In this document: piece by piece, positions 31,875 through 51,925 of the stretch
Position numbering within the stretch: position 1 is the first letter of the stretch
How the letters are laid out: every line of letters starts with the position of its first letter
Origin: Candidatus Omnitrophota bacterium
GTDB lineage: Bacteria > Omnitrophota > Omnitrophia > Omnitrophales > Aquincolibacteriaceae
Assembly (NCBI GenBank): GCA_043803685.1
Contig: JAZDJU010000100.1
Location: forward strand, 1-57,562
Reading direction: 5' to 3'
Length of the DNA: 57,562 nucleotides
Translations under genes and position numbers: made by a program
The notes under the pieces: generated by a model
What the model was told of the DNA's origin: nothing
Seen by the model: only the letters and a program-made list of their open reading frames with translations
Database searches by the model: none

Positions 31875-32023
31875 GAGTCACACCCCTTGAAGATCTCTGT
31901 GCGTCTTAACGTCTTCACACATTGCAAATAGAGCGCCAGAAAAAGGTGATAGCCCAACAGCAACAAAAGCGCGGGGATCCAAGCGATCCTGCGAAACGAT
32001 CTTAAAAAGGCATCCTGTGTCAC
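31871..32023 (-). CDS. Small single-pass membrane protein (50 aa), absent from the ORF track
   Basis: MTQDAFLRSFRRIAWIPALLLLLGYHLFLALYLQCVKTLRRTEIFKGCDS; GTGA overlap with the upstream stop and ATGA overlap with the downstream start. Confidence 0.65.
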   Translation of the reverse strand: MTQDAFLRSFRRIAWIPALLLLLGYHLFLALYLQCVKTLRRTEIFKGCDS

Positions 32024-34392
32024 GACCTGTTCTCCCTTTCAATCATCTTCTGTGCCACGATCGTCTTAAAGATGTTCTCCGCCAAAAAAACATACCCCCG
32101 GTCATTTGGATGCCAATTGTCTTCCGAGAGATAATCCTTTAAAGGAGTCAACCGGCTGAAGGCGGCCCCGTTATCCACCACAGGAACACCATAGGTCTTG
32201 CCGAGATCGCGAATGATCTGATCGCGGTCTCTTTCTCGAACGGGATAAGTGCACAGCAGAATCTCGATATGATTCGCACGCAGGATCCGAATCATCTCTC
32301 CGACATCATGCTTGAGCAGTTTGTCAAAAACATCCCGTCCTATCAAGCCATCGCGCTGCTCGATCTTTTTCCACCCATCCGGCGGGAAGTTATCCATCAA
32401 GCGTTCCGGATAGACCCCCAAAGAAAATACGATGTTCTTTAATAATTTCCAGATCCTGAAGCCGTCCAGAAAGATCATGGCTTTGAAACAGAATTTATGA
32501 AAACCGCTCTTGCCGAACAGGAAGATATTGCTTGTCTCCATATTCCAGTAATTATTGGCCCCCACCATGAGAATGACCAGATCGGGTCTGTATTTCCGAA
32601 GATACTTTGGCAGCTCAAACAAAATCATGGAGGTGTTTTGCCCTATGGCATTTTCGAAGGAACACGCGGCATTGATGCCGGGGAAATCCCTGTTTAAGAG
32701 CTTCTCAAGTTGGGCGGGATAGCCGTTTTTCAAAGGATTCGTTGCCCCAACCCCCCAGGTTGAGGACTCCCCGACACAGAAAACACGAAAACCGGCCTGA
32801 GAATCTTGTGGCGGACGATAATAAAGATCGTACCCGAAGCCTGCCACACGTAGCGCCAGCTCCAGAAGAACCAATGCCAGAATAACTCCCAGAAAAACAG
32901 AAAAAATTTTATGCCAGAAAAATTTCTTGGCGGAAAGGCTCTTCATCTCAACGGGCGTTTCGACTGGCTCGATGTTCCTTTTAATCCCCGCAGCCTGCAC
33001 AGCGCGCTCGATATCTTCCTTGCGCCGCTTCCGAATTTCCAGATTATTAGAGCCGTCGACGGTCGCCCAATCGTCAGACATCTCCGCTCCCGTCTTGCAG
33101 GCTATACCGAAGCGCTCAAACGAAGATTCAATGGGAGAATCCGCCATAAGACGGCAGCAATTGATGTTGGCCACAGAATCCAAAGCGGGAGCCAGGATCG
33201 CCAACCTCTCAAGCGTTAAGCGGTGATCTTCTTCGCTTTCGCCGGGAAACCCTGCGATCAGATTGATGTGCGTCCTGATCCCGGCAGCCTTGGTCCGCCG
33301 CAAGACAAGCAAAACATCCTCGAATCTGAAGGGTTTGCCCATTTTCTCCAGAACAGGGTCTGATAAGCTTTCGACGCCGTAAACAATATCCCGAAGGCCC
33401 GCCTCCCGCATCCGCTGAAGCAACCGATCGCTCATATCCGTCCGGATAACCCCTTGCCCCCCCCAATTTACATCGATCCCCGACGCAATAAGAAGGCCGG
33501 CCAGCTCATCCAGAACCTTAAGATCGCCATTGAACATAAGGTCATTGCAGCGCAAGGACCTCTTTGCAAAACGGCGGTTCATCATCTTCATTTCCAGAAA
33601 AATATTCTTTGCCGAACGGTAACGGTACTTACCGCTCCAGATCAACCAGTCATTGCAAAAAGAGCAATGATTCACACACCCGCGGCTAAAAAGGATCGGC
33701 AGCTCGGCGCGCACAGCGTATTGGTTCAAGGAGAATTTCTCCCATGCGGGAAAGGGGAAATCATCCAAACATTCCAAGAATGCAAGTTTACGGTCAAACT
33801 TCTTGGCGTCCGTGGTCATAACGCTGGGATTATCCACCATGCGCCCGGCCTCACGAGCTTGAACAATATCCAGCATGGCCCGCTCGCCTTCGCCCAGAAC
33901 AATATAATCCACCGTCGCGTTATCTACCAAAAGCTCTCCGGTCGTGGGCGACGACAAGAACCGGAAAGGAAGCTCAGACTTGTAATGCTTCACATGCGCT
34001 GTGGGGCCGCCATAAACAATACAAACAGATGGCTTTACGGTCTTGATCTTACGGCTTAAAGCGATCGCAAAAAGAAGGTTGCCTCCGGTCAATGAAAAAC
34101 CAACCGTCCGGTATCCTTGCTTGATCACATGATCGGCCCAGCACTGGATCTGATCGCTAAATACCGCTTCGATCTCGCGGAAAAACCGCTCATCCTCCCA
34201 TCGAGGGGAATTTTCCTCATCCCACAGACGCCGATTTTCCAACTTACTACGCGTATAAAACAAAACATTGAGATCGAGCACATCGCACGCGATCCCGTGC
34301 GCTTCCAGATACGCCGCAATATAAGCCACCCCCATGGGCGGCAAACTGACCGAAGCGAAAGGGCAATGGATCAACAGCACGTTTTTGGACAT
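32020..34392 (-). CDS. B12-binding radical SAM protein fused through a TM helix to an SGNH/GDSL domain
   Basis: PPMGVAYIAA, GEGE, CVNHCSFC, YGVES, GFPGE; then LLELALR, CVGESSTWG, MVGANN, DNWHPNDRGY. Confidence 0.85.
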   Translation of the reverse strand: MSKNVLLIHCPFASVSLPPMGVAYIAAYLEAHGIACDVLDLNVLFYTRSKLENRRLWDEENSPRWEDERFFREIEAVFSDQIQCWADHVIKQGYRTVGFSLTGGNLLFAIALSRKIKTVKPSVCIVYGGPTAHVKHYKSELPFRFLSSPTTGELLVDNATVDYIVLGEGERAMLDIVQAREAGRMVDNPSVMTTDAKKFDRKLAFLECLDDFPFPAWEKFSLNQYAVRAELPILFSRGCVNHCSFCNDWLIWSGKYRYRSAKNIFLEMKMMNRRFAKRSLRCNDLMFNGDLKVLDELAGLLIASGIDVNWGGQGVIRTDMSDRLLQRMREAGLRDIVYGVESLSDPVLEKMGKPFRFEDVLLVLRRTKAAGIRTHINLIAGFPGESEEDHRLTLERLAILAPALDSVANINCCRLMADSPIESSFERFGIACKTGAEMSDDWATVDGSNNLEIRKRRKEDIERAVQAAGIKRNIEPVETPVEMKSLSAKKFFWHKIFSVFLGVILALVLLELALRVAGFGYDLYYRPPQDSQAGFRVFCVGESSTWGVGATNPLKNGYPAQLEKLLNRDFPGINAACSFENAIGQNTSMILFELPKYLRKYRPDLVILMVGANNYWNMETSNIFLFGKSGFHKFCFKAMIFLDGFRIWKLLKNIVFSLGVYPERLMDNFPPDGWKKIEQRDGLIGRDVFDKLLKHDVGEMIRILRANHIEILLCTYPVRERDRDQIIRDLGKTYGVPVVDNGAAFSRLTPLKDYLSEDNWHPNDRGYVFLAENIFKTIVAQKMIERENRS

Positions 34393-36226: not shown

Positions 36227-37513
36227 TTATATTCCGGCTGCCTCGATCTTTTGGTAAACATTTTCTGCCATGAGCCCATAACCGGCGTCGTTGCAGTGAT
36301 TGTCCGGTATAAATAATTTTTCCCGCGGCACTCCTTCGCGCATCTTCTTCTCAAAAATTGCGAAGTGGTCTACAAACAACAAGGAGTCCCGTTCTGCGAT
36401 CCTCCTAAGAAGATCGTTTTCCGGGATCCCTACCGGGTAATTCTGCAAAACCACCACTGCGCCGCTCGCCTGGATCTTCCGGACGATCTCTCGGACATCC
36501 GAGGCGACCCATTGTTCCAGCTGGAGGGGGGCCAATAAAAACAGGTTTTCCGCCAGACCAGGGTTCTTCAGGTTGAATTCCTTGATAAAGGTATCTATCT
36601 TTTTATTAATAACATCATTGTCACGCCCCTTATCTTCCAGGCGCATCTCTCGTATTTCTTTATAGCCTTCATTGATCTCGTCGGCAGACCTGAACCTGGC
36701 GTTCGCCTCCACGCCCTTTATAAACCAGCTCAAGGCCTCTTCATAATTTTTTTGGAAACGATAAAGGTTCCCCACATAAACATAATTCAAAGGATGCGCA
36801 GGGTCCTTTTTCATAACGCCCATAAAGACACCCATGGCCTCGCGACTCGCTGGAGCATCCACGACAAAATCCTTATTCCCGCATAAGACCGCCGTATTTC
36901 TAATGAACTTCTTCGCCTTCCGGTATTCAGGACTTCCACGATAACTGATATCCACCGAGGCCTGCAACGCGGACGCGGTGTTTTTATTGCCGCGGCCATG
37001 GTTCCACCCTAATAAGAATAGGCGGTAAACGCTGCTCGAATACATCATCTCGCTGGCAAGATACCTGATCCTTCCCGCCCAGGAAACCGCCCGTCCTTCT
37101 CTTTTTAAGTAGTCCGTATACCCTAAGCGATTCCAATAATTAGCCTGCCCCGTCTGCAAAAGAACCATGTCCGGCTTAAATCGCTGCAAGTTGGCGTCAA
37201 GCTCCGCGAGCAGTTCGGTCGTATTCTGAATAGAACGACCGAGGTTGAGGACCACAACTCTCTTTTCCGGCCTTCTGATGAATAGCATGCGCTGCAATTG
37301 CTCCGGATAACTCATGCCAGCCGCTGAACCAATGCCTTTGGTATACGAGTTCCCGAGGCACAAAATAACAAACGAGTCCCTTGCCGCGTCGGGGACATCA
37401 GTCCGGGAAGATTTCGCCTGCAGGCGATAAACAACGCCCAACCCTCTTAAACCAGCTTCAAGACAAAGCAATCCCAAAACAGCGCCTATCAAAAAAACTC
37501 CGAGTCGTTTCAT
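36227..37513 (-). CDS. Membrane-anchored SGNH protein with TPR insert, paralog A
   Basis: N-terminal TM LEAGLR; GNSYT, GQAN, TPR-like YEEALSWF, DNHCNDAGY. Confidence 0.8.
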   Translation of the reverse strand: MKRLGVFLIGAVLGLLCLEAGLRGLGVVYRLQAKSSRTDVPDAARDSFVILCLGNSYTKGIGSAAGMSYPEQLQRMLFIRRPEKRVVVLNLGRSIQNTTELLAELDANLQRFKPDMVLLQTGQANYWNRLGYTDYLKREGRAVSWAGRIRYLASEMMYSSSVYRLFLLGWNHGRGNKNTASALQASVDISYRGSPEYRKAKKFIRNTAVLCGNKDFVVDAPASREAMGVFMGVMKKDPAHPLNYVYVGNLYRFQKNYEEALSWFIKGVEANARFRSADEINEGYKEIREMRLEDKGRDNDVINKKIDTFIKEFNLKNPGLAENLFLLAPLQLEQWVASDVREIVRKIQASGAVVVLQNYPVGIPENDLLRRIAERDSLLFVDHFAIFEKKMREGVPREKLFIPDNHCNDAGYGLMAENVYQKIEAAGI

Positions 37514-38940
37514 AGAAAGCTCCCGATAAAACGTGGTCTGCGTTTAAAATCCAGCATCAACGATCCCCTGGTAAACATTTTCTGCCATGAGCCCATAACC
37601 GGCGTCATTGCAGTGGTTGTCCGGCACAAATAATGCTTCGCGGGGCACTCCTTCGCGCATCTTCTTCTCAAAAATTGCGAAGTGGTCTACAAACAACAAG
37701 GAGTCCCGTTCTGCGATCCTCCTAAGAAGATCGTTTTCCGGGATCCCTACCGGATAATTCTGCAAAACCACCACTGCGCCGCTCGCCTGGATCTTCCGGA
37801 CGATCTCTCGGACATCCGAGGCGACCCATTGTTCCAGCTGGATAGGCGTCAACAGAAGAAGGTTTTCCGCCAGATCAGGGTTCTTCCGGTTGAATTCCTT
37901 GATAAAGGCGTCGATCTTTTCGTTAACAACCCGTTGGTCACGACCTTTATCTTCCAGACGCATCCCTATTATTTCCCTATAGCCCTCATTGACCTCGTCA
38001 ACAGACCTGAACCTCACGTTGGCATTCACGCCCTTTACAAACCAGCGCAAAGCCTCTTCATAATCTTTTAGAAAACGAAAAACGCACCCCACATAAACAT
38101 AATTCAATGGATGCGAAGGATCCTTTTCCACCGCACTCATAAAAACCTTCAAGGCCTCACGGCCTTCTGGCACATTAACGACAGAATCTTTCCTCCAGAA
38201 AAAAGTCGAGGTTTTTCTAACGAAGCCCATCGCCTTCAGGTATTCAGGGCTTCCACGATAACTGATATCCACCGAGGCTTCCGGGGCCATTGCGGTGTTT
38301 TTCTTCCCGCTGACATGCTCCCGCCACAACAAGAACAGACGGTAAACGCTGCTCGAATACACGATCTCACTGGCAGAATACCTGATCTTTTCTGCCCAAG
38401 AAACGGCCCAGCCTTCCCTCTTTAAATAATCCGTGTACCCTAAATGGTTCCAGCAATTAGCCTGCCCCGTCTGCAAAAGAACCAGGTTCGGCTTAAATCG
38501 TTGCAAGTTGGCGTCAAGCTCCGCGAGCAATTCGGTCGTATTCTGATTAGAACGACCGAGGTTGAGGACCACAGCGTTCTTTTCCCGCCTTCCGTTGAAT
38601 AGCAAGCGCTGCAATTGCTCAGGATAGCTCATGCCATCATTCGAACCAGAGCCTTTGGTGTACGAATTCCCGAAACACAAAACAACAAATGGCTCCCTTG
38701 ACGCCTCGGGGACATCAGTCCGGGAAGATTTCGTCTGCAGACGATAAACAACGCCCAACCCTCTTAAACCAGCTTCGAGGCAAAGCAACCCCAGAACAGC
38801 GCCGATCAAAAAAACTCCGAGTCGTTTCATAGAAAGCTCCCGATAAAACGTGGTCTGCGTTTAAAATCCAGCATCAACGATCCCCTGGTAAACATTTTCT
38901 GCCATGAGCCCATACCCGGCGTCATTGCAGTGGTTGTCCG
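37488..38940. repeat. Direct repeat 37488-37623 / 38805-38940 (136 nt, 1 mismatch)
   Basis: Covers a gene start, the intergenic spacer and the 3' end of the upstream paralog; period 1317 nt. Confidence 0.9.
37544..38830 (-). CDS. Membrane-anchored SGNH protein with TPR insert, paralog B (tandem duplicate of A)
   Basis: Same length (428 aa) at a 1317-nt offset from paralog A; long near-identical nucleotide tracts. Confidence 0.8.
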   Translation of the reverse strand: MKRLGVFLIGAVLGLLCLEAGLRGLGVVYRLQTKSSRTDVPEASREPFVVLCFGNSYTKGSGSNDGMSYPEQLQRLLFNGRREKNAVVLNLGRSNQNTTELLAELDANLQRFKPNLVLLQTGQANCWNHLGYTDYLKREGWAVSWAEKIRYSASEIVYSSSVYRLFLLWREHVSGKKNTAMAPEASVDISYRGSPEYLKAMGFVRKTSTFFWRKDSVVNVPEGREALKVFMSAVEKDPSHPLNYVYVGCVFRFLKDYEEALRWFVKGVNANVRFRSVDEVNEGYREIIGMRLEDKGRDQRVVNEKIDAFIKEFNRKNPDLAENLLLLTPIQLEQWVASDVREIVRKIQASGAVVVLQNYPVGIPENDLLRRIAERDSLLFVDHFAIFEKKMREGVPREALFVPDNHCNDAGYGLMAENVYQGIVDAGF

Positions 38941-40174
38941 CCCCAAAATAACGATCCCTCGATGGGTCCTGCATCAACCTTCGATCAAAGATCCTTTTTT
39001 GATCCACAAAAGACAGGCGCATGCTTTGAACGGTCTTCGCCACGGCATTATTCGCCATCGTGTCGATCGGATAATTCTGGACAAGAAAAGGGATCTTTCT
39101 CGCCTGAAGGATCCCTACGATCTCGCGCAGATCGGATTCGATCCATGACATGACGTGATGCGTATCTAACGAAAAAAGAAGCTTCGCTTTCTCTGAGTGC
39201 CTTTTCTTAAAGCTCTTGATAAAATCATCGATACGTTGATTCAATTTTTCATTGTCCGCGCCCTTATCCTGATGCCGAGCTTGACGTAAAGCATGATATC
39301 CCCGATGCAAAACATCGCCTCTTCTCAATTCTGGATCGACCTCCAAGGATCTAATATACCAGGAAACGGCCTGCTCATACTGCTTCTGAGAACGATACGT
39401 ATCCCCGATCAAAATATAATTCGAAAAATTCTCGGGGTCTTTTTCGATCGCTTGCAACAACACGCGCCGGGTCGTCAAGACGCGCTCCGCGTCAAAAGGA
39501 ATGCGCGTCAGGTCCACGAAGGGGGAGTTCAGGTTCGTCACATACTGAACTGCATCTCGATACGCCTCATCTAACAAATAGCTTTGATCTGAGCCGAGAG
39601 AGGGTCTTCTCAAAAAATCCCGGTTTTTAAGGTGCTCCGAGGCAAGGACTAATAGGCGATACACCCTGCTCTCGTAAAAAATCCGACGCAACAGCTCCTG
39701 AACTCCATCCGTCCAAGACAACAAACCGTTTTCTCTTTTCAAATAATTCTCATACCCTAAATAATTCCATTGGTTCGCCTCCCCTGTCTGCAAAACGACC
39801 AGGGCCGGCATAACTCTGTCCAAGTTCCGAGGAAGGTCCGTCAACAACTCCGATGTGCTTTGAGCCCCATGCCCCTCATTGACGACAACAAATTTCGAGC
39901 CCGGCTTTCGAAGATCGAGCATTCTTTGTAGCTGCTCTGGATAGCTCATCCCTGAGGAAGCTCCGACTCCCTGGGTATAAGAATTCCCCAAACACAACAC
40001 GACCTTGGCGTCCTGGCCATGGATGGACGGCATCCGATGGTCTTGGCCTTCCATGATCCCATGGACCAGCCCGACTATCCGTAACCCGGCCTCGAGCACC
40101 AGGAGCGCCACGAGAATGCCTATCGAAAAAACAAGCGCTCTCTTCATCCATGAGATTTCTTTATTATGGATCAT
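38861..40174 (-). CDS. Membrane-anchored SGNH protein with TPR insert, paralog C
   Basis: LEAGLR, GNSYT, GEAN, DNHCNDAGY. Confidence 0.8.
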   Translation of the reverse strand: MIHNKEISWMKRALVFSIGILVALLVLEAGLRIVGLVHGIMEGQDHRMPSIHGQDAKVVLCLGNSYTQGVGASSGMSYPEQLQRMLDLRKPGSKFVVVNEGHGAQSTSELLTDLPRNLDRVMPALVVLQTGEANQWNYLGYENYLKRENGLLSWTDGVQELLRRIFYESRVYRLLVLASEHLKNRDFLRRPSLGSDQSYLLDEAYRDAVQYVTNLNSPFVDLTRIPFDAERVLTTRRVLLQAIEKDPENFSNYILIGDTYRSQKQYEQAVSWYIRSLEVDPELRRGDVLHRGYHALRQARHQDKGADNEKLNQRIDDFIKSFKKRHSEKAKLLFSLDTHHVMSWIESDLREIVGILQARKIPFLVQNYPIDTMANNAVAKTVQSMRLSFVDQKRIFDRRLMQDPSRDRYFGADNHCNDAGYGLMAENVYQGIVDAGF

Positions 40175-41463
40175 GACAGAAGCTTCTCCGCCAAGATCTT
40201 ACGGTAAACATTTTCTGCCATAAGCCCGTATCCGGCATCATTACAATGCCCGTCCGGGACAAAAAGATCTTCTCGTTTTACGCCCTCGGCCATTTTCTCT
40301 TCGAATGCTTTTTTATTATCCACAAAAGGGATCCCATTCCGTCCGGCGACTTCCATCAAAACCTCATTCGCGCGCATCGTGACCGGATAATTCTGCACCA
40401 ATAAACGGGTTTTCCTTCCTCGGAGAATCCGTAGGATCTCCTCCATATCGGACTTCATCCACGATAAGATCTCCAAATCTTTTAACAAAAAAAGGAATCT
40501 CGCCTTCTCCGAATATTTTCCCATAAATTGTTCGATAAAATTATCGATATGCTCGTTCAGACGGTCATTGCTGGCGCCTTTATCCTGCTGCCTCGCTTCA
40601 CGTAAAGCTTGATATCCGGGATGCAAAGCATTGCCCCTTTTCAGCGCAGGGTCAACCTCCAAGGACTTGATATACCAGAAAATAGCCTCTTCATGTTTGT
40701 TCTGAAGATAGGCCATGTTGCCGAGCAAGATATAATTCACCGGATTTTTCGGATCTTTTTGGGTCGCGCGCAACAACACACGGCGAAACCTCAAAACGCG
40801 TTCCCGGTCAAGGGGCTCACGTTTTGAATTACCGTAGGGAGAGGTTGCGCTCATAATATACTGATTTGCTTCTTGATGCTCCCCATCTAAAAAATAACTC
40901 TGATCGGGACTCGGTAGCCTCCTTTTCAAAAAATCTGGAGCCTTTACATGCCCCGCCACAAGCGCCAGTAAGCGGTACGCCCGGCTCTGATAAAGAGCCC
41001 AGCGCAACAGCTCTTCAACCCCATCCCTCCAGCTTAGAGAACCGCTTTCCCTCTTTAAGTGTTTTTCATACCCTATATAATTCCATTCGTTGGGCTGACC
41101 TGTCTGCAAAATAACCAGATCGGGCAAAAACTTGTCCAGGTTCGATGGAAGCTCCGCTAGCAACTCCGCGGTGTTCTGAGAACCTTTTCCCTGATTGATC
41201 ACCCGCACTCGGGTTTTTGGCATCTGTCCTTTGAACATTCGCTGTAACTGTTCGGGATAGCTCATCCCCGCAGAAGCCCCGGTGCCTTGGGTATAAGAAT
41301 TCCCCAAACACAAGATGACATAAGAGCCCCGGCCAGACAAAACCCCCGGCCGGCGATCACCGCCCTCCATAAGGCCATACCCAAGGCCCAAAAGCCTTAA
41401 GGCCACCTCCAGAGCGATCAAGGCCACTAAAAAACCTAAAAGAAAAACGATGAGCCTTCGCAT
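40171..41463 (-). CDS. Membrane-anchored SGNH protein with TPR insert, paralog D
   Basis: Start MRRLIVF in TGATG overlap; LEVALR, GNSYT, GQPN, DGHCNDAGY. Confidence 0.8.
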   Translation of the reverse strand: MRRLIVFLLGFLVALIALEVALRLLGLGYGLMEGGDRRPGVLSGRGSYVILCLGNSYTQGTGASAGMSYPEQLQRMFKGQMPKTRVRVINQGKGSQNTAELLAELPSNLDKFLPDLVILQTGQPNEWNYIGYEKHLKRESGSLSWRDGVEELLRWALYQSRAYRLLALVAGHVKAPDFLKRRLPSPDQSYFLDGEHQEANQYIMSATSPYGNSKREPLDRERVLRFRRVLLRATQKDPKNPVNYILLGNMAYLQNKHEEAIFWYIKSLEVDPALKRGNALHPGYQALREARQQDKGASNDRLNEHIDNFIEQFMGKYSEKARFLFLLKDLEILSWMKSDMEEILRILRGRKTRLLVQNYPVTMRANEVLMEVAGRNGIPFVDNKKAFEEKMAEGVKREDLFVPDGHCNDAGYGLMAENVYRKILAEKLLS

Positions 41464-42902
41464 CAATCCCTTACCTTCATCTGGTGCCATTCCGGGGATC
41501 GGGCATACCAGTCCTTCGCCGGCATCCCGTTCAATAAACCGGACGCCAATTCCCGTCCCATCATCATGGCATGATCCATATTGCAATGAAGGAACAAGCC
41601 TAATCGACCGCTCGAATAAACATAGGGGTTCTTTAAAGCCAGGAAATCCAGCATCGTTTGAACGCTTTTTTCCCAGCCCAGAAAATACACCGCATAAACC
41701 TCCGGCATAAGCCATGTGAAATTCAAAGATTCATCCATCGTGGTCTCTGGCGATACAAGCTCCGCCTCATGCAGGGCTTTAAAACATATCTGTCCGATAT
41801 CCTTATCCGGCATCTCCCACCAGGGATCCCCCGGACTGCAAGGAACTTCGCAAATATAGCTTACCGGAAAACCGTCAGGTTGCAGAAGCGAAGAAAATCT
41901 TTGCGGGATAGAAACCCTGCCAAAAGGGTATTTTGATTCCGGGTAATAAAACGTCTCCCCGGTCAAGGCGGGGGGCTTGCTCAGGTGAAGGAAAACCAGG
42001 CGCAGGCCTCGCCACATCCGGCGCTCCACATCCGCCTGAAATCCCAACTTGCGGCATAAGGCATCGATCGGCATGGTTGAAACAAGCGCATCATAAGCAA
42101 CCGTGTGCCGTTCTCCGTCCGGCAGGGCAAAACTGATCTCTCTGGGACCTGAGGATTCGCTGATCCCAAGCTCTCGCGCCTCGGTCATGATCGCCCCTTG
42201 ATGCTCCACAATCTTTTGCTCCAGAGCCTTCGCTAAAGATCCGATCCCGTGACTGAAATAATAGAATTCGCCGGAGCTTTGTCCGCCCCATAAATGCCGC
42301 AGAATTTTTTTCAAAAATGCCAGCGGACACAACATCGATACTCTCTTTTTGGCCGCCAGAACAGAAATTAGGGCCGGATCCAAACCAAAAACCTTGCGAG
42401 CGTACGGCTCATAAAAAAGACGGTAGACCCGATCGCCCACCTGGCGTCTCAAATAACCTTCGTAGGTGTCGGAACCGGCCAAGGCGTCCCCGGACAGCTC
42501 TTGACCCGATTTCCGCCTCGCCCACGAGACGACAAATTCCCAAAGTTCCTTAATCCCTAGCGCTGAAAAAAACTGCAGCGTTTCGATGGGATAATCAAGG
42601 TGCTTGGTCCCGAACCTCAGCTTGCCAGCGCGCTGCCGGACCATTAGCTCCGGTCCCATCAACTGCTGCAAATAACACAGCTCTTCCTCCCCGATGTCCT
42701 TATGAATGCGATGCGAACCCAGATCATATTGATAGCCTTGGCGCGAAAGGGTCCTGGCCATGCCACCGGCCTCTGCTTCGCGCTCCAAGACAAGGACCTC
42801 TCCGGGATGCGCCTTTAAAAGTTCGCACGCCGTCGTAAGGCCGCTGATGCCGGCGCCTATAACAACGTATTTGTATTTCTTCTTTAACGGAACGCCTTGC
42901 AT
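41463..42902 (-). CDS. FAD-dependent oxidoreductase (UDP-galactopyranose mutase/HemY-like family common in glycan loci)
   Basis: VIGAGISGL, ERE..AGGMART, DLGSHR, GRLG..F...NMDHAMMMG. Confidence 0.8.
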   Translation of the reverse strand: MQGVPLKKKYKYVVIGAGISGLTTACELLKAHPGEVLVLEREAEAGGMARTLSRQGYQYDLGSHRIHKDIGEEELCYLQQLMGPELMVRQRAGKLRFGTKHLDYPIETLQFFSALGIKELWEFVVSWARRKSGQELSGDALAGSDTYEGYLRRQVGDRVYRLFYEPYARKVFGLDPALISVLAAKKRVSMLCPLAFLKKILRHLWGGQSSGEFYYFSHGIGSLAKALEQKIVEHQGAIMTEARELGISESSGPREISFALPDGERHTVAYDALVSTMPIDALCRKLGFQADVERRMWRGLRLVFLHLSKPPALTGETFYYPESKYPFGRVSIPQRFSSLLQPDGFPVSYICEVPCSPGDPWWEMPDKDIGQICFKALHEAELVSPETTMDESLNFTWLMPEVYAVYFLGWEKSVQTMLDFLALKNPYVYSSGRLGLFLHCNMDHAMMMGRELASGLLNGMPAKDWYARSPEWHQMKVRD

Positions 42903-42940: not shown

Positions 42941-44218
42941 TCAACACCAACCCGCGGCCTTCATCCCCTCGAACACGTTTTCCGCCATAATGCCATACCC
43001 CTTGGCGCTGCAATGAGTGTCCGGACCGTACAGGTCTTCCCGGGCTATCCCCGTCGCAAGCTTCTTCTGAAAGACATCGAAATGATCCACTAGCGGCAAG
43101 CCCCTTTCCCCCGCGATCTTCTCAAGGATTCTGTTCACGGGCGTTTCAATAGGATAATTCTGCAACATCAGCGGGATCCTGCGCGCCTGGAGGATATCCA
43201 CGAGGGTATTCATATCGGACTCGACCCATTCTTCAACCTGGCTAGACGTCAGCATAAGAAGATTGGCCGCCTCTTGCGGGTGCCGCTGATTGAGCTGACG
43301 GATGAAATCATCGATTTTTTGATTTAACCGTTCGTCATCAACTCCCTTGTCCATCCGGCGCATCTGGCGTATCTCCCGATAACCTTTATGCAGCTCTTCT
43401 CCCGTGCGGCTTCGCGCGTCCACTTCCACGGAGCGGATGAACCAATCTACAGCCTTTTCATAATCTCCCCGATGCCGGTAAATGTGCCCGATAAAAACAT
43501 AATTTTCAGAATTCCCGGGATCAGAAACCAGTGCGCGCCAAACCACCTGAAGAGCCCAAAGGCTTTGACCGGGATCAAGCGTTACTTTCTGCGCGTTAGC
43601 GTCTCTGGTGAGTTGCGTCGCCTCGAGGTAGCTCCGGCTCATTCTATAGCGCCGGTTTTCACCTAAAGAAAAACCTTCACATGCGGCGCTCTTCTGCCGG
43701 AGATTATCACGCAACAAAACAATAAGCCTGTAAACGCGGCTTTCATAAAGAAGGTCTCTTACAACATAGGTCCCATGGCGGGGCCAGGAAAAATCCTTGT
43801 CTTTGCGCCTTAAATGATCCGTATACCGCAGATAATTCCATAGATTGGGCTGCCCGGTCTGAAGCAGCACAAAATCCGGTCTGTAGCGGTCCAGCTCCCT
43901 GGAAAGAACTTTGATCAATTCGGAGGTGTTCTGTCCTCCTTTTCCCTGATTGAGGACCTCAAACTTTCGGGAGGGCAACCGCTGGTCCAACAACCTTTGC
44001 AACTGGGCGGGATAACTCATCGAAGCCTCAGCCCCGTCGCCTTTGGTGAAGGAATTCCCGAGGCATAAGATCACCTGTTGGGACCCTGGCGCCGCCGCTG
44101 GCTTGGGGTCCAGAAAATCCCTCGCTGAAGCGTGAAGAAAGCTCACGCTCCTTAAGGAGATCTCCAGAACCATTACGACGGATAGAAGCCCTAAAAGAAA
44201 AACGAGGAGTTTTTTCAT
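42941..44218 (-). CDS. Membrane-anchored SGNH protein with TPR insert, paralog E
   Basis: LEISLR, GNSFT, GQPN, DTHCSAKGY; ATGA-coupled to the carbamoyltransferase. Confidence 0.8.
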   Translation of the reverse strand: MKKLLVFLLGLLSVVMVLEISLRSVSFLHASARDFLDPKPAAAPGSQQVILCLGNSFTKGDGAEASMSYPAQLQRLLDQRLPSRKFEVLNQGKGGQNTSELIKVLSRELDRYRPDFVLLQTGQPNLWNYLRYTDHLRRKDKDFSWPRHGTYVVRDLLYESRVYRLIVLLRDNLRQKSAACEGFSLGENRRYRMSRSYLEATQLTRDANAQKVTLDPGQSLWALQVVWRALVSDPGNSENYVFIGHIYRHRGDYEKAVDWFIRSVEVDARSRTGEELHKGYREIRQMRRMDKGVDDERLNQKIDDFIRQLNQRHPQEAANLLMLTSSQVEEWVESDMNTLVDILQARRIPLMLQNYPIETPVNRILEKIAGERGLPLVDHFDVFQKKLATGIAREDLYGPDTHCSAKGYGIMAENVFEGMKAAGWC

Positions 44219-45918
44219 GCCGTCAGGGCCTGGCTCCTTTTCTTCGCCACCACATGATTCCCAAGGACCAAAAGATCCATGTCGCTCTCAAAAAAACAAC
44301 GCAGCGCGTCTTCCGGCGACCCCGCCACCGGCTCTCCCCGGAGATTGAACGATGTGTTGATGATGACCGGAACTCCCGTGATCGCTTCAAACGCCTTGAT
44401 CAACTGCCACAGTTTAGGATTCGTGTCACGTCCGACCGTTTGAACTCGCGCGGAACCATCGACATGAACGATCCCGGGGATCAGGCTTTTTTTCTCATCT
44501 CTTACCTGAGGCGCCAAAAGCATGAAGGGCGAAAGACATTCGAGATCGAAAAATTCCCGGGCTCGCTCTTGGAGCACGACGGGAGCATAGGGCCTGAAAG
44601 GTTCTCTTTTTTTAACCTTGTCATTGAGGATCTCCTTCATCCCCGGATGGCAAGGATTCCCTAAGATAGACCTGTTGCCCAAAGCCCTCGGGCCAAACTC
44701 CATGTGCCCCTGAAACCATCCAACAACCTTGTTCTCCGCGATCTGTTTCGCCACAAAAGAAGCCAAGGCCTCGTCCTCGTACACTTCAAACGCCGCGTCA
44801 TGATTAAGAAGAATGCGGTGGATCTGCTCCTCAGAAAAAGAGGGCCCGAGATAGGCGTGGGACATGCTGGAGTGTTTGGGATTCTTTAAAACGCAACGGT
44901 CGATATACGCGGCCACTCCTAATGAACCGCCGGCGTCCCCTGCGGCCGGCTGAATAAAGACCTCCTTGAACAAGCCCGCTTCAAGGATTTTCGTGTTCGC
45001 CACACAATTGAGGAACAACCCTCCCGCCAGGCACAAACGGTCCATGCCGGTGTCCTGACGCACCTGACGCGCCACCGCCAGAAGGACCTCTTCGGTCAGC
45101 TTCTGCACACTTGCCGCGATATCACAATGCCGCGGCTCGATCCTCTCCTCCGGCTTTCTGTCAGGTCCGAACATCTTTACAAACCGGCGGCTGTACATTC
45201 TTCCGCCGTGATTAAATCCGAAAAAACGCTGATCCACAGCAAAGCTGCCGTCGGCTGAAACCTTCACAATGTCTTTGAGGGCCTTTAAATAGGTTGGTTT
45301 CCCACAACCGGCCAGCGCCATCACGGTACCTTCTCCCTCATGTGCCGCAAACCCAAGGTAGGTCGTGATCGCGGTATACACCAATCCCAAAGAATGGGGA
45401 TATGAAATTTCCTTCGAGATCTTGATATTGGAACCGCGTCCATATCCATAAGCCATGGTCGTCCATTCGCCCACGGCATCGGAGGTGAGGATCGCGGCCT
45501 CATCAAAGGGAGACACAAGAAAAGCGCTCGCGGCGTGGGAGAGATGATGTTTAATGAAAAACACCTTGCCCTGATAACCCAGGTCCTTTTCAAGGGTCAG
45601 CGGCAAAAGAAGTCTGTCTTCGAGCCAATGGGGCATGGTCTTCAGAAAATGCCCCAACGAGTGCGGCCAAGCCCTTAGATGATCGATCAGAACGCGTGAG
45701 AATTTCAAAAAAGGTTTTTCGTAAAACCCGATATGATCAATATCCGCGAAGGTGATCCCCGCCGCCTGGACGCAGTAGTTGATCGCATGGACAGGAAAAG
45801 CGGAGGAATTCTTCCGGCGGTCAAAACGCTCTTCCTGCGCCGCCGCAACGATCTCTCCGTTACGGACAAGACATGCCGCCGCATCATGGTAATGACAGGA
45901 TATCCCGAGTATATTCAT
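44215..45918 (-). CDS. O-carbamoyltransferase, NodU/CmcH/TobZ family
   Basis: ILGISCHYHDAAA, AAQEERF, HHLSHAASAF, DAVGE, EFGPRALGNRSIL, KKREPFRPYAP, HVDGSARVQT, NTSFN. Confidence 0.95.
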   Translation of the reverse strand: MNILGISCHYHDAAACLVRNGEIVAAAQEERFDRRKNSSAFPVHAINYCVQAAGITFADIDHIGFYEKPFLKFSRVLIDHLRAWPHSLGHFLKTMPHWLEDRLLLPLTLEKDLGYQGKVFFIKHHLSHAASAFLVSPFDEAAILTSDAVGEWTTMAYGYGRGSNIKISKEISYPHSLGLVYTAITTYLGFAAHEGEGTVMALAGCGKPTYLKALKDIVKVSADGSFAVDQRFFGFNHGGRMYSRRFVKMFGPDRKPEERIEPRHCDIAASVQKLTEEVLLAVARQVRQDTGMDRLCLAGGLFLNCVANTKILEAGLFKEVFIQPAAGDAGGSLGVAAYIDRCVLKNPKHSSMSHAYLGPSFSEEQIHRILLNHDAAFEVYEDEALASFVAKQIAENKVVGWFQGHMEFGPRALGNRSILGNPCHPGMKEILNDKVKKREPFRPYAPVVLQERAREFFDLECLSPFMLLAPQVRDEKKSLIPGIVHVDGSARVQTVGRDTNPKLWQLIKAFEAITGVPVIINTSFNLRGEPVAGSPEDALRCFFESDMDLLVLGNHVVAKKRSQALTA

Positions 45919-45928
45919 GCGCGCCCGT

Positions 45929-46090
45929 TCAGATCCCTGCGTAAATAAAAGTAGTCACCACCGCCGGACCGACATAGCACGCCAGGAAGACCAGCAGCGT
46001 CATGACAATAAAAATGGGCAGCAAAAAAGCGATCTTGTGCTTCTTGATCAGATAGAATATTTCCCTAAAAACATACCGGAGCTTGTTCAT
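45929..46090 (-). CDS. Small membrane protein, SxtK/DUF5989-like (53 aa), absent from the ORF track
   Basis: MNKLRYVFREIFYLIKKHKIAFLLPIFIVMTLLVFLACYVGPAVVTTFIYAGI; AAGGGGG RBS; typical position beside a carbamoyltransferase. Confidence 0.8.
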   Translation of the reverse strand: MNKLRYVFREIFYLIKKHKIAFLLPIFIVMTLLVFLACYVGPAVVTTFIYAGI

Positions 46091-46110
46091 CAGCATCCCC
46101 CTTTTTTAAA

Positions 46111-46341
46111 TCACGCCTGCCTTAGAAGATCATCCTCATCGGGTTCATACCCGGCGGCATCAAGCCAGCGGGCCTGGCCCTCCGCGCAAGGCCTGGGTAA
46201 AAGATCCCGTCGGAACAGCTTTAAAAATACGGCGGTGGGCCCAAACACGAAAATGTACGCGAGGACCAGAAGGGACACCATCAGTCCCTTTTTGACAGCC
46301 CTGATGACAGGTCGCATGAATTTCTGTATTTTTTTAAACAT
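46111..46341 (-). CDS. SxtJ-like small membrane protein (C-terminal half type)
   Basis: LLVLAYIFVFGPTAVFLKLFRRDLL...ARW...LLRQ pattern. Confidence 0.65.
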   Translation of the reverse strand: MFKKIQKFMRPVIRAVKKGLMVSLLVLAYIFVFGPTAVFLKLFRRDLLPRPCAEGQARWLDAAGYEPDEDDLLRQA

Positions 46342-46342
46342 A

Positions 46343-47371
46343 TCAGGCCTCCGCCGGCAACCCGAGATTCTTTCGCACCCTTTCAAGGGCTTCCCTGCCA
46401 AAATTGACCTCCAAAAGTCTTAACGCCTCCTGCCGCGACAAAAGAGATTCGCGGATCATTTTACTCATTTCCACGTGGTAATGCGTGTAGCCGAAATTTT
46501 TCATCGAGCGATAGACGGAAAGAAAATTCAAATCGCAATTGGTCGACGCCGCAGGATAGCTCTGCTCTGGGGACTTCCACTTCAATTCTTTTTTCAGAAT
46601 GTCCACATACTCGCTGGAATCGATCGGCAAAAACCAGTGCGGAGAAACCACGATAGCCTTATGCCGTTTTTGGGCCCGGGCGACAACCTCCTCCATGCTT
46701 CGCGGGAAGCCTTTGTACTTAGGATTCTCCCGGGTATATTTATCAAGAAAATCCTGTGTCGCCTTGGACATGGACACGAACTCGGCCTGACGCAGATCGC
46801 AGCCCATGGACTGCTGAGAACTCTGCCCTTTGGTCCATCCGGCCACAATGATCGGAATATCAAAACGCGCCGCCATATCAAAGGTCAGCCCCATGTACCA
46901 AAGTGAACACGGATGACATATCACGGCCTTGTCATCGCGCCTATCAATCTCGGCGAACATTTCTTTCATGTGGTCTGACTTGAAAAAAACAAAATCGACG
47001 CCGAGGATCTCGACCGCATGACGGATGTTGGCTAGCGCCTCTTCGGTTTCAAAACCATGGTCAAAAGTGAAAGCCAAAGGATTCAGTTTGTACCGCTTCT
47101 TCATGTAATAAAGCGCCGCCGTGCTGTCCTTGCCGCCGCTGCACATGACAAGACAGTCATACGGCCCTTTACGCTTGTGCTGATTCAGGATCTTGACAAA
47201 ATCACTTTCCAGAGGCTTCGCCCGGAAGTCCTTTTTTTGTTTCTCAAACTCACGGCAAATATTGCAAATCCCCTCTCCATCAAGCGATATATCCGGCCGG
47301 CTTTCAGGCAGGACGCACCTCTTGCAAAGGGTTCTGCCGCCCAATTCCCGCTTCATCTCCGGAATGCTCAT
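46343..47371 (-). CDS. N-acetyl sugar amidotransferase-like PP-loop ATPase (WbpG/WbuX type)
   Basis: CKRCVLP...CNIC, YDCLVMCSGGKDS, CHPC, STNC, SKMIRESLLSRQEAL. Confidence 0.75.
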   Translation of the reverse strand: MSIPEMKRELGGRTLCKRCVLPESRPDISLDGEGICNICREFEKQKKDFRAKPLESDFVKILNQHKRKGPYDCLVMCSGGKDSTAALYYMKKRYKLNPLAFTFDHGFETEEALANIRHAVEILGVDFVFFKSDHMKEMFAEIDRRDDKAVICHPCSLWYMGLTFDMAARFDIPIIVAGWTKGQSSQQSMGCDLRQAEFVSMSKATQDFLDKYTRENPKYKGFPRSMEEVVARAQKRHKAIVVSPHWFLPIDSSEYVDILKKELKWKSPEQSYPAASTNCDLNFLSVYRSMKNFGYTHYHVEMSKMIRESLLSRQEALRLLEVNFGREALERVRKNLGLPAEA

Positions 47372-49227: not shown

Positions 49228-51925
49228 TCACCGTCCGCGTGCCATCATTTTTGCCAACGCCTTCAATCCCATTCTTTGCAAGAAGGATAACCGGGCCAGG
49301 CGTTCCTGGACGATCCTGTTCCTCCCGATATCATCACAGCTTTTGTAGCAACCCACCTTGCATTGTTCGTCGTTGCCGATTTGATGAAAAAAATCGTCAT
49401 TTTTGTCGAATTTCAGCGCTTTCCGGCGAAACTCCCGCTGCTTCGCGGAATTCCAGATAGCCCTAAAGGAGTTCTGATACAAATTCCCAACGGGAGCCCT
49501 GTGCGCTTTCAGACAAAAATTAACATCGCCATCCGACATGATACGGCTAAAAACCCATCCGACATAGCAGGAGTACTCCTTAAACAGGCCGCTGTCATAT
49601 TCCGCCTTCCCCGCACTGGTATCGGAAAGACGGCGGACCAGGGTTTCCATGTTAAGAACCTTGACTTTATAGTTCCCTGACAAAATACGTTCACACTGGG
49701 CAAGAACATCCAGACGCTGTTCGCCGTCCAGGATCAGTGAGTCCGTGGCCCCGGGAATCGTATCCACCAAAGCAAACTCCACGGATTCAGAGCCGGTGTC
49801 TTCAGCAAACGCGACCATCTCTTCGAGCTCACGATAGTTGAGATTGGAAATGACATTGTAAACCTTGACGCTAGGCTTATGGTCGTCTTTAACCGTATTA
49901 AGCATGCTGAGCATTTTCGCCATGCGCTCAAATGTGGCCGCATCCTTGTTCGGATGGGTTCGCCCGTACGATGCGGCGTTAGCAGCCCAAAAACTCACCG
50001 TCAAAGCGTCCACGCCAATATCCATCAACTGCTTAACGGCGACCTCATCCACCAGTGTAAAATTCGTATTGATGCCACAATATAGCCCCTGAATCTTGGC
50101 GTGTCTGAGAATCGTCATAAGGTCCGGGTGCATGAAAGGCTCCCCGCCGCCGGAAAAATAAAGCTCCCGTGTCCCAAGGCCCACCAGATCATCGATGAGA
50201 GAGATGACCATCGGGGTTGGGAGCGTCTTATGCTTTTTGGCGCCACGGTACTTCCGCGAACGCAATAGCGGCGAATTGCACCAACAGCTAATGCAATTAT
50301 TATTGCATTTGCTCGTCAGATCGATCTGCACACTATCCGGCCCTTTAAACGCATAAGAGCCATGCTCAACTCCCAACAAATTTAAAAAATTGCTTTTGAT
50401 TTTCCTAAGAGTCTCATTCCGCGGTGACAACCTGCCGCAGAAGCATAGGATCCGGTCCCTCAAGCGAAGCCGAAATAAGCCCCGCCACAGCACAACCCAA
50501 GGATAAACGATCTTTTTCTTAAGGAACATCACCAGTTTTTCAGCCGCCGTGGCATTTTTCCTTACGTCGCTGCGTGTTTCCCACGCATGTTCCTGCCAAC
50601 GTCTTTCAGCCTCCTGCTTAGCGACCTTTAGCTCTTTGGCCTCAAGGGCCTCCGTTCGGAGCATGGCTCTTGAATTTCCATCATAATCTCTCGGGTCTTT
50701 TGAAACGATATGACCCCTCGCCTCCAGATCTTTATAATGTTGGGTCCCCGGGAATGCCGTGGTGATCGAAAATTGGACGGTGTCCGGATCCAGCGCCTTG
50801 GCAAATTCAATGGTCTTATGGATCGTCTCTTGCGTTTCTCCCGGCAAACCGAATGTGAACGTTAAATGGGTTTTGATCCCGAGGGACTTCGTGAAACGGA
50901 CCATCCGCTCGAGCTTCTTGAGATCGAGCTTCTTCTGTATGCGATCCACCAGTTTCTGGTCGGCGGATTCGACCCCATACTTGACCGCCGCAAGGCCCGC
51001 TGAAAAAAAGGTTTTCCAGAAGATCCTCTTCCATAAGATCCGCGCGCGCCATCATGGCCCAGGGCACATTCACGGCTCTGCGCTTTATTTCATCGGCAAG
51101 CTCCATCATCCTGTGCTTACCGATATTCATGGTGTCATCATCAAAATAGACCGACTTGAACCCCTTCTCGTTGACGAGATATTCCATTTCATTAACGACG
51201 TCCACCACGCTGCGGATCCTGTAGCGATGGCTTTGATACATCAGCTGCGGCCAACTACAAAACAGACACTGGTAAGGACATCCCCGGGAAGACCACATTT
51301 GAACGCTCGGAAAAGGAATGCCTCCCGGCGCGTCATTATATTTCTCCATTACGTGCCCGTCACGCAAAGGCCAGGGTAACTCATCCAGATTCTCGAGAAG
51401 AGGCCTTGCGGGATTCACTTTGCACTCCCCCTCTTGACGATAGATCAACCCCTTAACGCCCGAAAGATCCTTCCCGGCGACCAAATGCTGGACGAGCTCC
51501 AGCAGGGTGATCTCATACTCTCCCACCATGACGTAGGTGATCCGGGGATGACGTCCCAAAAACTGCACGTCCCGAATATGAATCTCAGGCCCACACAACG
51601 CTACAGGAATTCCCGGAGGCAATTTTTGTATCATCGAAAGATCATGGGGCAAAGAAGGTGTGGATGTTTCGGCGAGAAGCAGATCCGGTTTTTCATCGCG
51701 GATCAGGGACAACAGGCGCGGCATCGGCATCTCTTCGGCCAAAGCGTCGATCAGCCGGACCTCAAAACCTTCGCGCTTAAGCAACGCCGCCGCATACGCC
51801 ATAAAGAAAGGGAATGGCAAGTAGTGCCGTTCGCGGGCCGTTTTAATATGAGGCCAGCGGGATCCGGCGCGAACCCCCCACAACCCCCCTCTTTTCCAGG
51901 GTAAATTGACCAGAAAAACTTTCAT
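49228..51925 (-). pseudogene. Frameshifted two-radical-SAM fusion (HpnJ-like B12-radical SAM plus radical SAM/SPASM), 898 aa if repaired
   Basis: ORF 50816-51925 (AGSRWP, CPYQCLFC) and ORF 49228-50949 (CNNNCISC, SPASM) join if one base is removed from the A7 run at 51003-51009, restoring LFSAGLAAVKYGVESADQK. Confidence 0.8.

Follow-up and report, generated by a model that had tools for sequence, protein, structure and literature searches.

A candidate MBOAT-free tyrosine relay linking a NodU-type carbamoyltransferase, a DUF5989 peptide and SGNH proteins in Omnitrophota

We analyzed a 57,562-nucleotide stretch of DNA from a Candidatus Omnitrophota bacterium (contig JAZDJU010000100.1, forward strand; hereafter, the window), in which a 53-residue peptide of the DUF5989 family is encoded between genes for a short SxtJ-like protein and a NodU/CmcH-family O-carbamoyltransferase (CT), with a gene for an SGNH protein beyond. 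By analogy with DltX, this peptide is likely to be a carrier of a carbamoyl-derived group. We favor, with modest confidence, a tyrosine relay without an MBOAT protein, in which the group would pass from the CT to the peptide, from the peptide to an SGNH protein and from there to an envelope acceptor, with a PP-loop enzyme possibly altering the cargo. The association of these genes is real and lies far beyond chance. Homologous proteins whose sources are named agree with an origin in Omnitrophota. The cassette comprises:

46343..47371 (-): PP-loop ATP pyrophosphatase of a WbuX/NASAT-like subfamily, with an SGGKDS loop and an N-terminal CxxC-CxxC motif (TIGR03573, E 1e-50)
46111..46341 (-): half-length SxtJ-like membrane protein, 76 residues, predicted CT membrane anchor (hidden Markov model [HMM] match; CT-SxtJ fusions elsewhere)
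45929..46090 (-): DUF5989 peptide of the FIYAG subtype, 53 residues, predicted N-in/C-out, with Tyr50 as the proposed carrier (Pfam, homologues)
44215..45918 (-): CT of the SxtJ/DUF5989-linked group (Pfam, conserved residues, tree)
42941..44218 (-): membrane-anchored SGNH protein with a TPR insert, ATGA-coupled to the CT (Pfam, structure model)

On the minus strand these genes follow one another in this order and are succeeded by a gene for an FAD (flavin adenine dinucleotide) oxidoreductase and four SGNH paralogues. A first-pass annotation of the window had placed the CT beside the peptide and coupled it to the SGNH gene, which is borne out by both Carbam_trans domains and the ATGA overlap of 44215-45918 with 42941-44218. 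It had drawn the module too short, missing the PP-loop gene at 46343-47371 to which the module extends. The annotation was right that the window holds no MBOAT: Pfam finds none among the 24 open reading frames (ORFs) scanned, and the sole MBOAT match of the host genome lies on a different contig (C119:42720-44279(-)).

The peptide was first noticed as an ORF at 45929-46090, and it is real and coding, since its differences from seven homologues fall 97/49/234 at codon positions 1/2/3. Counted from the second ATG it has 53 residues, and a GGGG run resembling a ribosome-binding site stands just 5' of that start. As first described, a basic, amphipathic N-terminus leads into a single hydrophobic helix and the end TTFIYAGI-stop. 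The Pfam DUF5989 (PF19451) score is 28.1 bits against a gathering cut-off of 27, its Atlas neighbours are DUF5989 clusters, and one homologue search gave only four close relatives. Across 58 sequences the part ahead of the helix has a net charge of +3.7 and the part beyond it lacks Lys and Arg, so the tail is predicted to face outward.

The hexapeptide FXYXXF, with its Tyr fourth from the C-terminus (position -4), has been proven to act as the acyl shuttle in DltX and PatA (PMC12148441). The first-pass annotation had put F-I-Y of the window peptide in the DltX register, which holds for F-X-Y with Tyr at -4 but not for the final Phe; that residue is present in 3 of 20 copies of the subtype described below. 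Because the MBOAT and the final Phe are both missing, the window system is not a member of the Dlt/Pat group. The combination of F-6 and Y-4 is rare in the host genome, occurring in just 3 of 2395 ORFs of at least 200 residues, and the sole FXYXXF among them is the MBOAT.

Several locus sets speak to the conservation of this tyrosine, but three of them (the 30 best loci of the phylum, 80 genome loci picked with a pattern containing FIY, and the top 150 of 5450 representatives) had the tail in the query, so their Tyr counts are circular. A non-circular test therefore used 80 metagenome loci chosen by CT patterns alone and searched with a peptide HMM stripped of its last nine columns. This model found 63 peptides in 62 of the 80 loci. 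Every one of them has Tyr at -4 (63/63), no other of the 49 peptide positions being as conserved, and 59 end in FXYXXF. The invariance that the annotation had put forward as a check on its idea thus stood, as it did in the FIYAG subtype (20/20). Elsewhere in the family, the tails of the phylum's 30 best DUF5989 loci all read FIYTLF, and in the weakest Pfam DUF5989 matches the flanking Phe varies while the Tyr is constant. Pooled counts, partly motif-selected and with some loci counted twice, are 218/218 for Y-4, 209 for F-6 and 197 for F-1. The family is widespread, found in 180 of 301 genomes of this phylum, in 65 of 301 of a second phylum and in 5450 cluster representatives.

The company these genes keep is equally consistent, and the co-occurrence of CT, SxtJ, peptide and SGNH genes without an MBOAT, also suggested as a check, was found from either direction. 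The 80 CT-picked loci have SxtJ in 67, SGNH in 31 and MBOAT in one; 80 genome loci picked by the peptide have CT in 61, SxtJ in 61, SGNH in 25 and MBOAT in one. SGNH genes were called with local HMMs, which may miss distant types. Where both flanks of a CT-picked locus reach at least 900 bases, SGNH is present in 25 of 44, and length-matched windows of this SGNH-rich genome would lead one to expect it in 3.9 of 80 loci rather than 31. Peptide loci without a CT, several of which are short contigs, have an SGNH gene within 3 kb in 7 of 19 cases. One locus (L307) has the order CT-J-SGNH-peptide-SGNH-peptide with an SGNH pair 73% identical, the SGNH and peptide genes having been duplicated in tandem as one unit. 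Moreover, 3 of 20 further loci fetched encode CT-SxtJ fusions of about 740 residues directly upstream of the peptide (L314:6150-8381, L320:6202-8418 and L322:6191-8407). Only these fusions held up; long peptide and SxtJ ORFs that also resembled fusions proved to be upstream open frames. In the L314 fusion several conserved CT motifs are altered and the protein may be inactive. In a viral control of 26 loci with distant CTs we found no SxtJ, no peptide and no counterpart of a conserved segment at CT residues 68-101. Viral contigs L274-L279 carry CTs that belong to the SxtJ-linked group; five of these six loci have a minimal SxtJ-like ORF of 48-57 residues, and the peptide HMM gave no peptide there.

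The window locus is a distinct subtype, marked by four linked features: a FIYAG[I/F/V] tail, an SxtJ of half length, a CT clade of its own and a PP-loop enzyme. Searching 301 genomes for the window peptide yielded 20 strong homologues, with tails all of the form FIYAG[I/F/V], and these loci have a CT in 19, a short SxtJ in 19, the PP-loop gene in 19, SGNH within 3 kb in 18 and MBOAT in none. Reciprocally, all 20 PP-loop matches of at least 47% identity sit at FIYAG loci, and the remaining matches are at most 35% identical, except one contig-end fragment. The CTs of the subtype form one clade with the window CT (21/21 from FIYAG loci, support 0.987, FastTree, 58 sequences), with fixed changes that include Y197G and A302F relative to canonical copies. 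The cassette occurs in unrelated neighbourhoods, some with glycosyltransferases.

The PP-loop protein scores 173 bits against TIGR03573 (E 1e-50), below the cut-off of 203.2. It has an additional CxxC at 152/155 and Cys279, and C152, C155 and C279 are invariant. Such a cluster site, together with a sulfur supply, would be expected of a TtuA/TtcA-type Fe-S sulfur transferase. We considered this triad as proof of sulfur transfer and rejected it, because PP-loop copies linked to HisH/HisF have the same three cysteines; the triad thus cannot decide between ammonia and sulfur chemistry. No HisH or HisF gene is present among 76 genes flanking subtype loci, and in 5 of 20 such loci (L062, L063, L066, L077, L078) a gene for an IscS-like cysteine desulfurase lies immediately 5' of the cassette; no close copy of it was found in the host genome, where a canonical WbuX-HisH-HisF set is present separately. 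Genes for the nearest sister PP-loop proteins share operons with those for an acyl carrier protein and an AMP ligase, and in 4 of the 11 loci that were fetched the sister gene lies behind an MBOAT ending in KY[YF]YFQF and an anchored SGNH-like gene. Set beside these sister operons, the window cassette looks as if CT, SxtJ and peptide had replaced MBOAT and carrier. Among Dlt-like operons of this kind (L357-L360, L366), the genes are those for an MBOAT, a 330-residue anchored SGNH-like protein with a weak DUF1574 match, the PP-loop sister, an acyl carrier protein and an AMP ligase, sometimes with an asparagine synthase. The carbamoyl shuttle proposed in the first-pass annotation is partly supported: it passed both of its sequence predictions, but that proposal had overlooked the subtype; because the window copy is coupled to a PP-loop enzyme, its cargo may differ from plain carbamoyl.

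The CT has Carbam_trans_N and Carbam_trans_C domains, no predicted signal or transmembrane helix, and family His, Asp and Lys positions that are invariant in 74/74 sequences; we take the roles of these residues to be those of their TobZ counterparts. Its conserved segment at residues 68-101 is amphipathic, and the most amphipathic 15-mer of the 552 begins at residue 68. The gene upstream of the peptide had been called SxtJ-like. Its homology to SxtJ stands, but it covers only the C-terminal half, aligning to positions 80-129 of a 133-position full-length SxtJ HMM (E 2.8e-7 at Z=1000), and it has no Pfam match and is not of the full-length, four-segment form of SxtJ (PF19588); full-length neighbours in other genomes do match Pfam SxtJ. 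The short protein consists of an amphipathic helix and one hydrophobic segment flanked by 3.4 basic residues on one side and 3.2 on the other, from which a re-entrant helix is predicted, and we predict that it anchors the CT to the membrane.

The SGNH protein encoded at 42941-44218 has the residues Ser56, Asn125, Asp400 and His402, of which Ser and His are the catalytic pair of the fold. Among 53 such proteins Ser56 and His402 are each kept in 52, and Glu19 (53/53) and Arg23 (47/53) sit at the end of the N-terminal anchor. In a structure model with a predicted local distance difference test (pLDDT) score of 84, the protein has an SGNH fold preceded by an anchor helix at the N-terminus. Of the 53 proteins, 43 have another residue in place of the block II Gly, as in the transferase-type proteins PatB and OatA. 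A profile search of the PDB with the family returned mostly TPR proteins.

From the genes, their conservation and linkage, the fusions and the catalytic residues we infer the chemistry, the complexes, the acceptor and the membrane crossing as follows. In step 1, as established for the family, the cytoplasmic CT would make carbamoyl-AMP from carbamoyl phosphate and ATP. SxtJ and the amphipathic helices of the CT would keep the CT at the membrane next to the peptide (step 2). In step 3, the weakest, the hydrophobic tail might dip through a locally thinned membrane, have Tyr50 carbamoylated and return outward. By analogy with DltD and PatB, the Ser of an extracytoplasmic SGNH protein would then accept the group and hand it on to the envelope, where the acceptor is probably a glycan (step 4). 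In the FIYAG subtype only, the PP-loop enzyme may turn the carbamoyl C=O into C=NH or C=S before export (step 5).

A number of observations weigh against this relay. By the predicted topology the tail faces outward whereas the CT is cytoplasmic, and there is no multi-pass channel protein; the window tail, FIYAGI, fits F-X-Y without the final Phe of FXYXXF. The flanks of subtype loci mix housekeeping and glycosyltransferase genes and so do not pin down the envelope acceptor. In a fold search of the SGNH model by VIA-align wide, esterases come out on top (CE3, Z 20.9, root-mean-square deviation 1.9, 171 aligned), with PatB (Z 16.4) and OatA (Z 16.1) ranking 27 and 29, and the SGNH copy adjacent to the CT retains the hydrolase-type block II Gly. 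SGNH genes are enriched and not obligatory, being present in only 25 of 80 canonical genome loci, and GDSL/SGNH Pfam families account for none of 96 further flanking genes, while 8 of the 26 viral control loci, largely one near-identical group, have an SGNH-type match. In the saxitoxin literature, PMC2679770 proposes SxtL as a decarbamoylating hydrolase.

The main competitor, which we regard as unlikely, makes SxtJ and the peptide structural subunits that anchor the CT at the inner face of the membrane. The CT would carbamoylate an acceptor on the cytoplasmic side directly, the Tyr tail would be a docking motif only, and the SGNH protein would edit the product as an esterase or decarbamoylase. 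The solved CT relatives TobZ, NovN and GdmN act directly on small molecules; the CT-SxtJ fusions show anchoring; esterase folds come first for the SGNH model; 55 of 80 canonical loci are without SGNH; and no membrane crossing is required. The saxitoxin papers say only that SxtI acts with SxtJ/K and name SxtL a decarbamoylase. Such anchoring leaves unexplained, however, why the Tyr is never replaced by Phe (63/63; 218/218) while the adjoining Phe residues vary, why the tail matches the FXYXXF register and faces away from the CT, and why peptide and SGNH genes are duplicated jointly and persist without a CT. The topology problem would also vanish if the peptide were a Tyr shuttle that receives an ordinary acyl group from an MBOAT or AT3 protein encoded at an unlinked site, the CT having a separate job in the pathway. 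The host genome has an MBOAT, and 19 of 80 peptide loci (several of them short contigs) show no CT, one having an AT3 neighbour (L160); but that MBOAT already has its own FIYFQF tail, MBOATs occur in 0/20, 1/80 and 1/80 loci, and the tail type follows the CT clade (21/21, support 0.987), which leaves this explanation very improbable.

The remaining alternative agrees with steps 1 to 4 of the relay and differs in step 5: the relay would carry plain carbamoyl, and the PP-loop protein would be a usual WbuX-type amidotransferase with a nucleotide sugar as its substrate, linked only in that both decorate the same glycan. The nearest named family is that of N-acetyl sugar amidotransferases, and HisH/HisF-linked copies have the three additional cysteines as well. 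Against it are the count of HisH/HisF genes in the subtype flanks (0/76), the one-to-one match of the PP-loop gene with FIYAG tail, short SxtJ and CT clade even without nearby glycan genes, the acyl-carrier systems that sister PP-loop proteins accompany, and the separate canonical set in the genome; counted apart from the relay with altered cargo, we give it only a small chance.

Among known systems, the DltX/DltB/DltD machinery of teichoic-acid D-alanylation (PMC12148441) shares with the window a single-pass microprotein, a C-terminal hexapeptide with an invariant Tyr at -4 and a membrane-anchored SGNH partner gene. The window system differs in having no MBOAT or acyl carrier protein, a soluble NodU-type CT with SxtJ as the donor, a FIYAG[I/F/V] tail and a cargo that would be carbamoyl-derived; the likeness is one of layout and tail. 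PatA-PatB and AlgI pairs likewise share the FXYXXF register (59/63 canonical peptides) and an anchored SGNH protein with Ser-Asp-His, and the host's own MBOAT ends in FIYFQF; here the tail is on a free peptide rather than fused to an MBOAT, and the SGNH protein has a TPR insert and finds PatB only 27th by fold. The CT resembles TobZ, NovN, GdmN and NodU in both domains and in the conserved His, Asp and Lys positions, and departs from them in the amphipathic 68-101 segment, the tight linkage to membrane partners and the changes Y197G and A302F, which set the subtype apart from canonical copies. With WbuX/NASAT (PDB 8WEX; PMC10607449) the PP-loop protein has the loop and the N-terminal four-cysteine motif in common, whereas it falls below the family cut-off, has no nearby HisH/HisF and three extra invariant cysteines, and is coupled to the CT cassette. 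PMC10607449 describes a related solved enzyme as a Zn-binding PP-loop amidotransferase with TtuA and LarE as its closest folds.

The closest parallel in gene order is sxtI-J-K-L, for which the table of PMC2679770 lists a CT of about 610 residues, an SxtJ of about 134, a 54-residue ORF and a GDSL protein of about 425; from size and gene order, SxtK would be a DUF5989 peptide. The window differs in its half-length SxtJ, its added PP-loop gene and its lack of saxitoxin cluster context. Passages in four saxitoxin papers (PMC2679770, PMC2684587, PMC12300590 and bioRxiv 10.64898/2026.06.11.731795) have SxtI working with SxtJ/K and give J and K no function. For L. wollei, PMC3037375 reports a truncated sxtI, no sxtL, a gene table from which sxtJ and sxtK are absent, and an acyltransferase with acetyl replacing carbamoyl; this pattern fits the loss of one four-gene machine and equally the authors' own reading. 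We found no paper naming DUF5989 or describing a carbamoyl shuttle, in a search that largely left subscription journals outside; in a PatAB paper retrieved for carbamoyl- and acyl-shuttle microproteins, the word carbamoyl occurs 0 times.

If true, the relay would bring to the acyl-Tyr shuttle both a donor chemistry and a way across the membrane that are new to it, provide a function for the uncharacterised DUF5989 family, and recast long-unexplained small partners of SxtI-type CTs, and many 'GDSL lipases', as parts of transferases. A bolder form is put forward as a doubtful conjecture: that this is a third route of acylation across membranes beside MBOAT and AT3, in which a soluble CT loads a Tyr peptide without any membrane acyltransferase and, in the window subtype, the PP-loop enzyme makes an amidino or thiocarbamoyl group that the SGNH protein installs on the envelope, a surface modification of which we found no report.

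A second module of the host genome, of the canonical kind, lies at the ends of two contigs, C119:11-2325(-) and C18:2-1819(+), the former with CT and full SxtJ and the latter with SGNH-TPR and a FIYTLF peptide ahead of a heptosyltransferase-like gene. Since the ends share no sequence overlap, joining them rests solely on the gene order of a locus from the same genus (L309), where CT-J-SGNH-peptide is intact. With its sole MBOAT, which itself ends in FIYFQF, this one genome has three Tyr-tail systems. Elsewhere, L093 and L317 encode tandem pairs of DUF5989 peptides with slightly different tails, and 25 of 150 representatives (P0044-P0193) carry unrelated sequence past the tail, possibly from read-through gene calls.

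Downstream of the cassette on the minus strand lie the following genes:

41463..42902 (-): FAD-dependent oxidoreductase within the SGNH array, context and not a conserved cassette member (profile scan, neighbourhoods)
40171..41715 (-): SGNH-TPR paralogue, true start probably near 41460 (profile scan)
38861..40174 (-): SGNH-TPR paralogue (profile scan)
37544..38830 (-): SGNH paralogue (profile scan)
36227..37513 (-): SGNH paralogue (profile scan)

The four tandem SGNH paralogues (36227-41715) contain identical stretches, in the 36227 and 37544 copies and at the C-termini of the 37544 and 38861 copies, which suggests recent duplication or gene conversion. Additionally, the window encodes a B12-dependent radical SAM protein with a fused C-terminal SGNH domain (32020-34392) and, at 49228-51925, an HpnJ-like B12 radical SAM gene apparently split across two overlapping frames, the second of which runs on into a radical SAM/SPASM protein.

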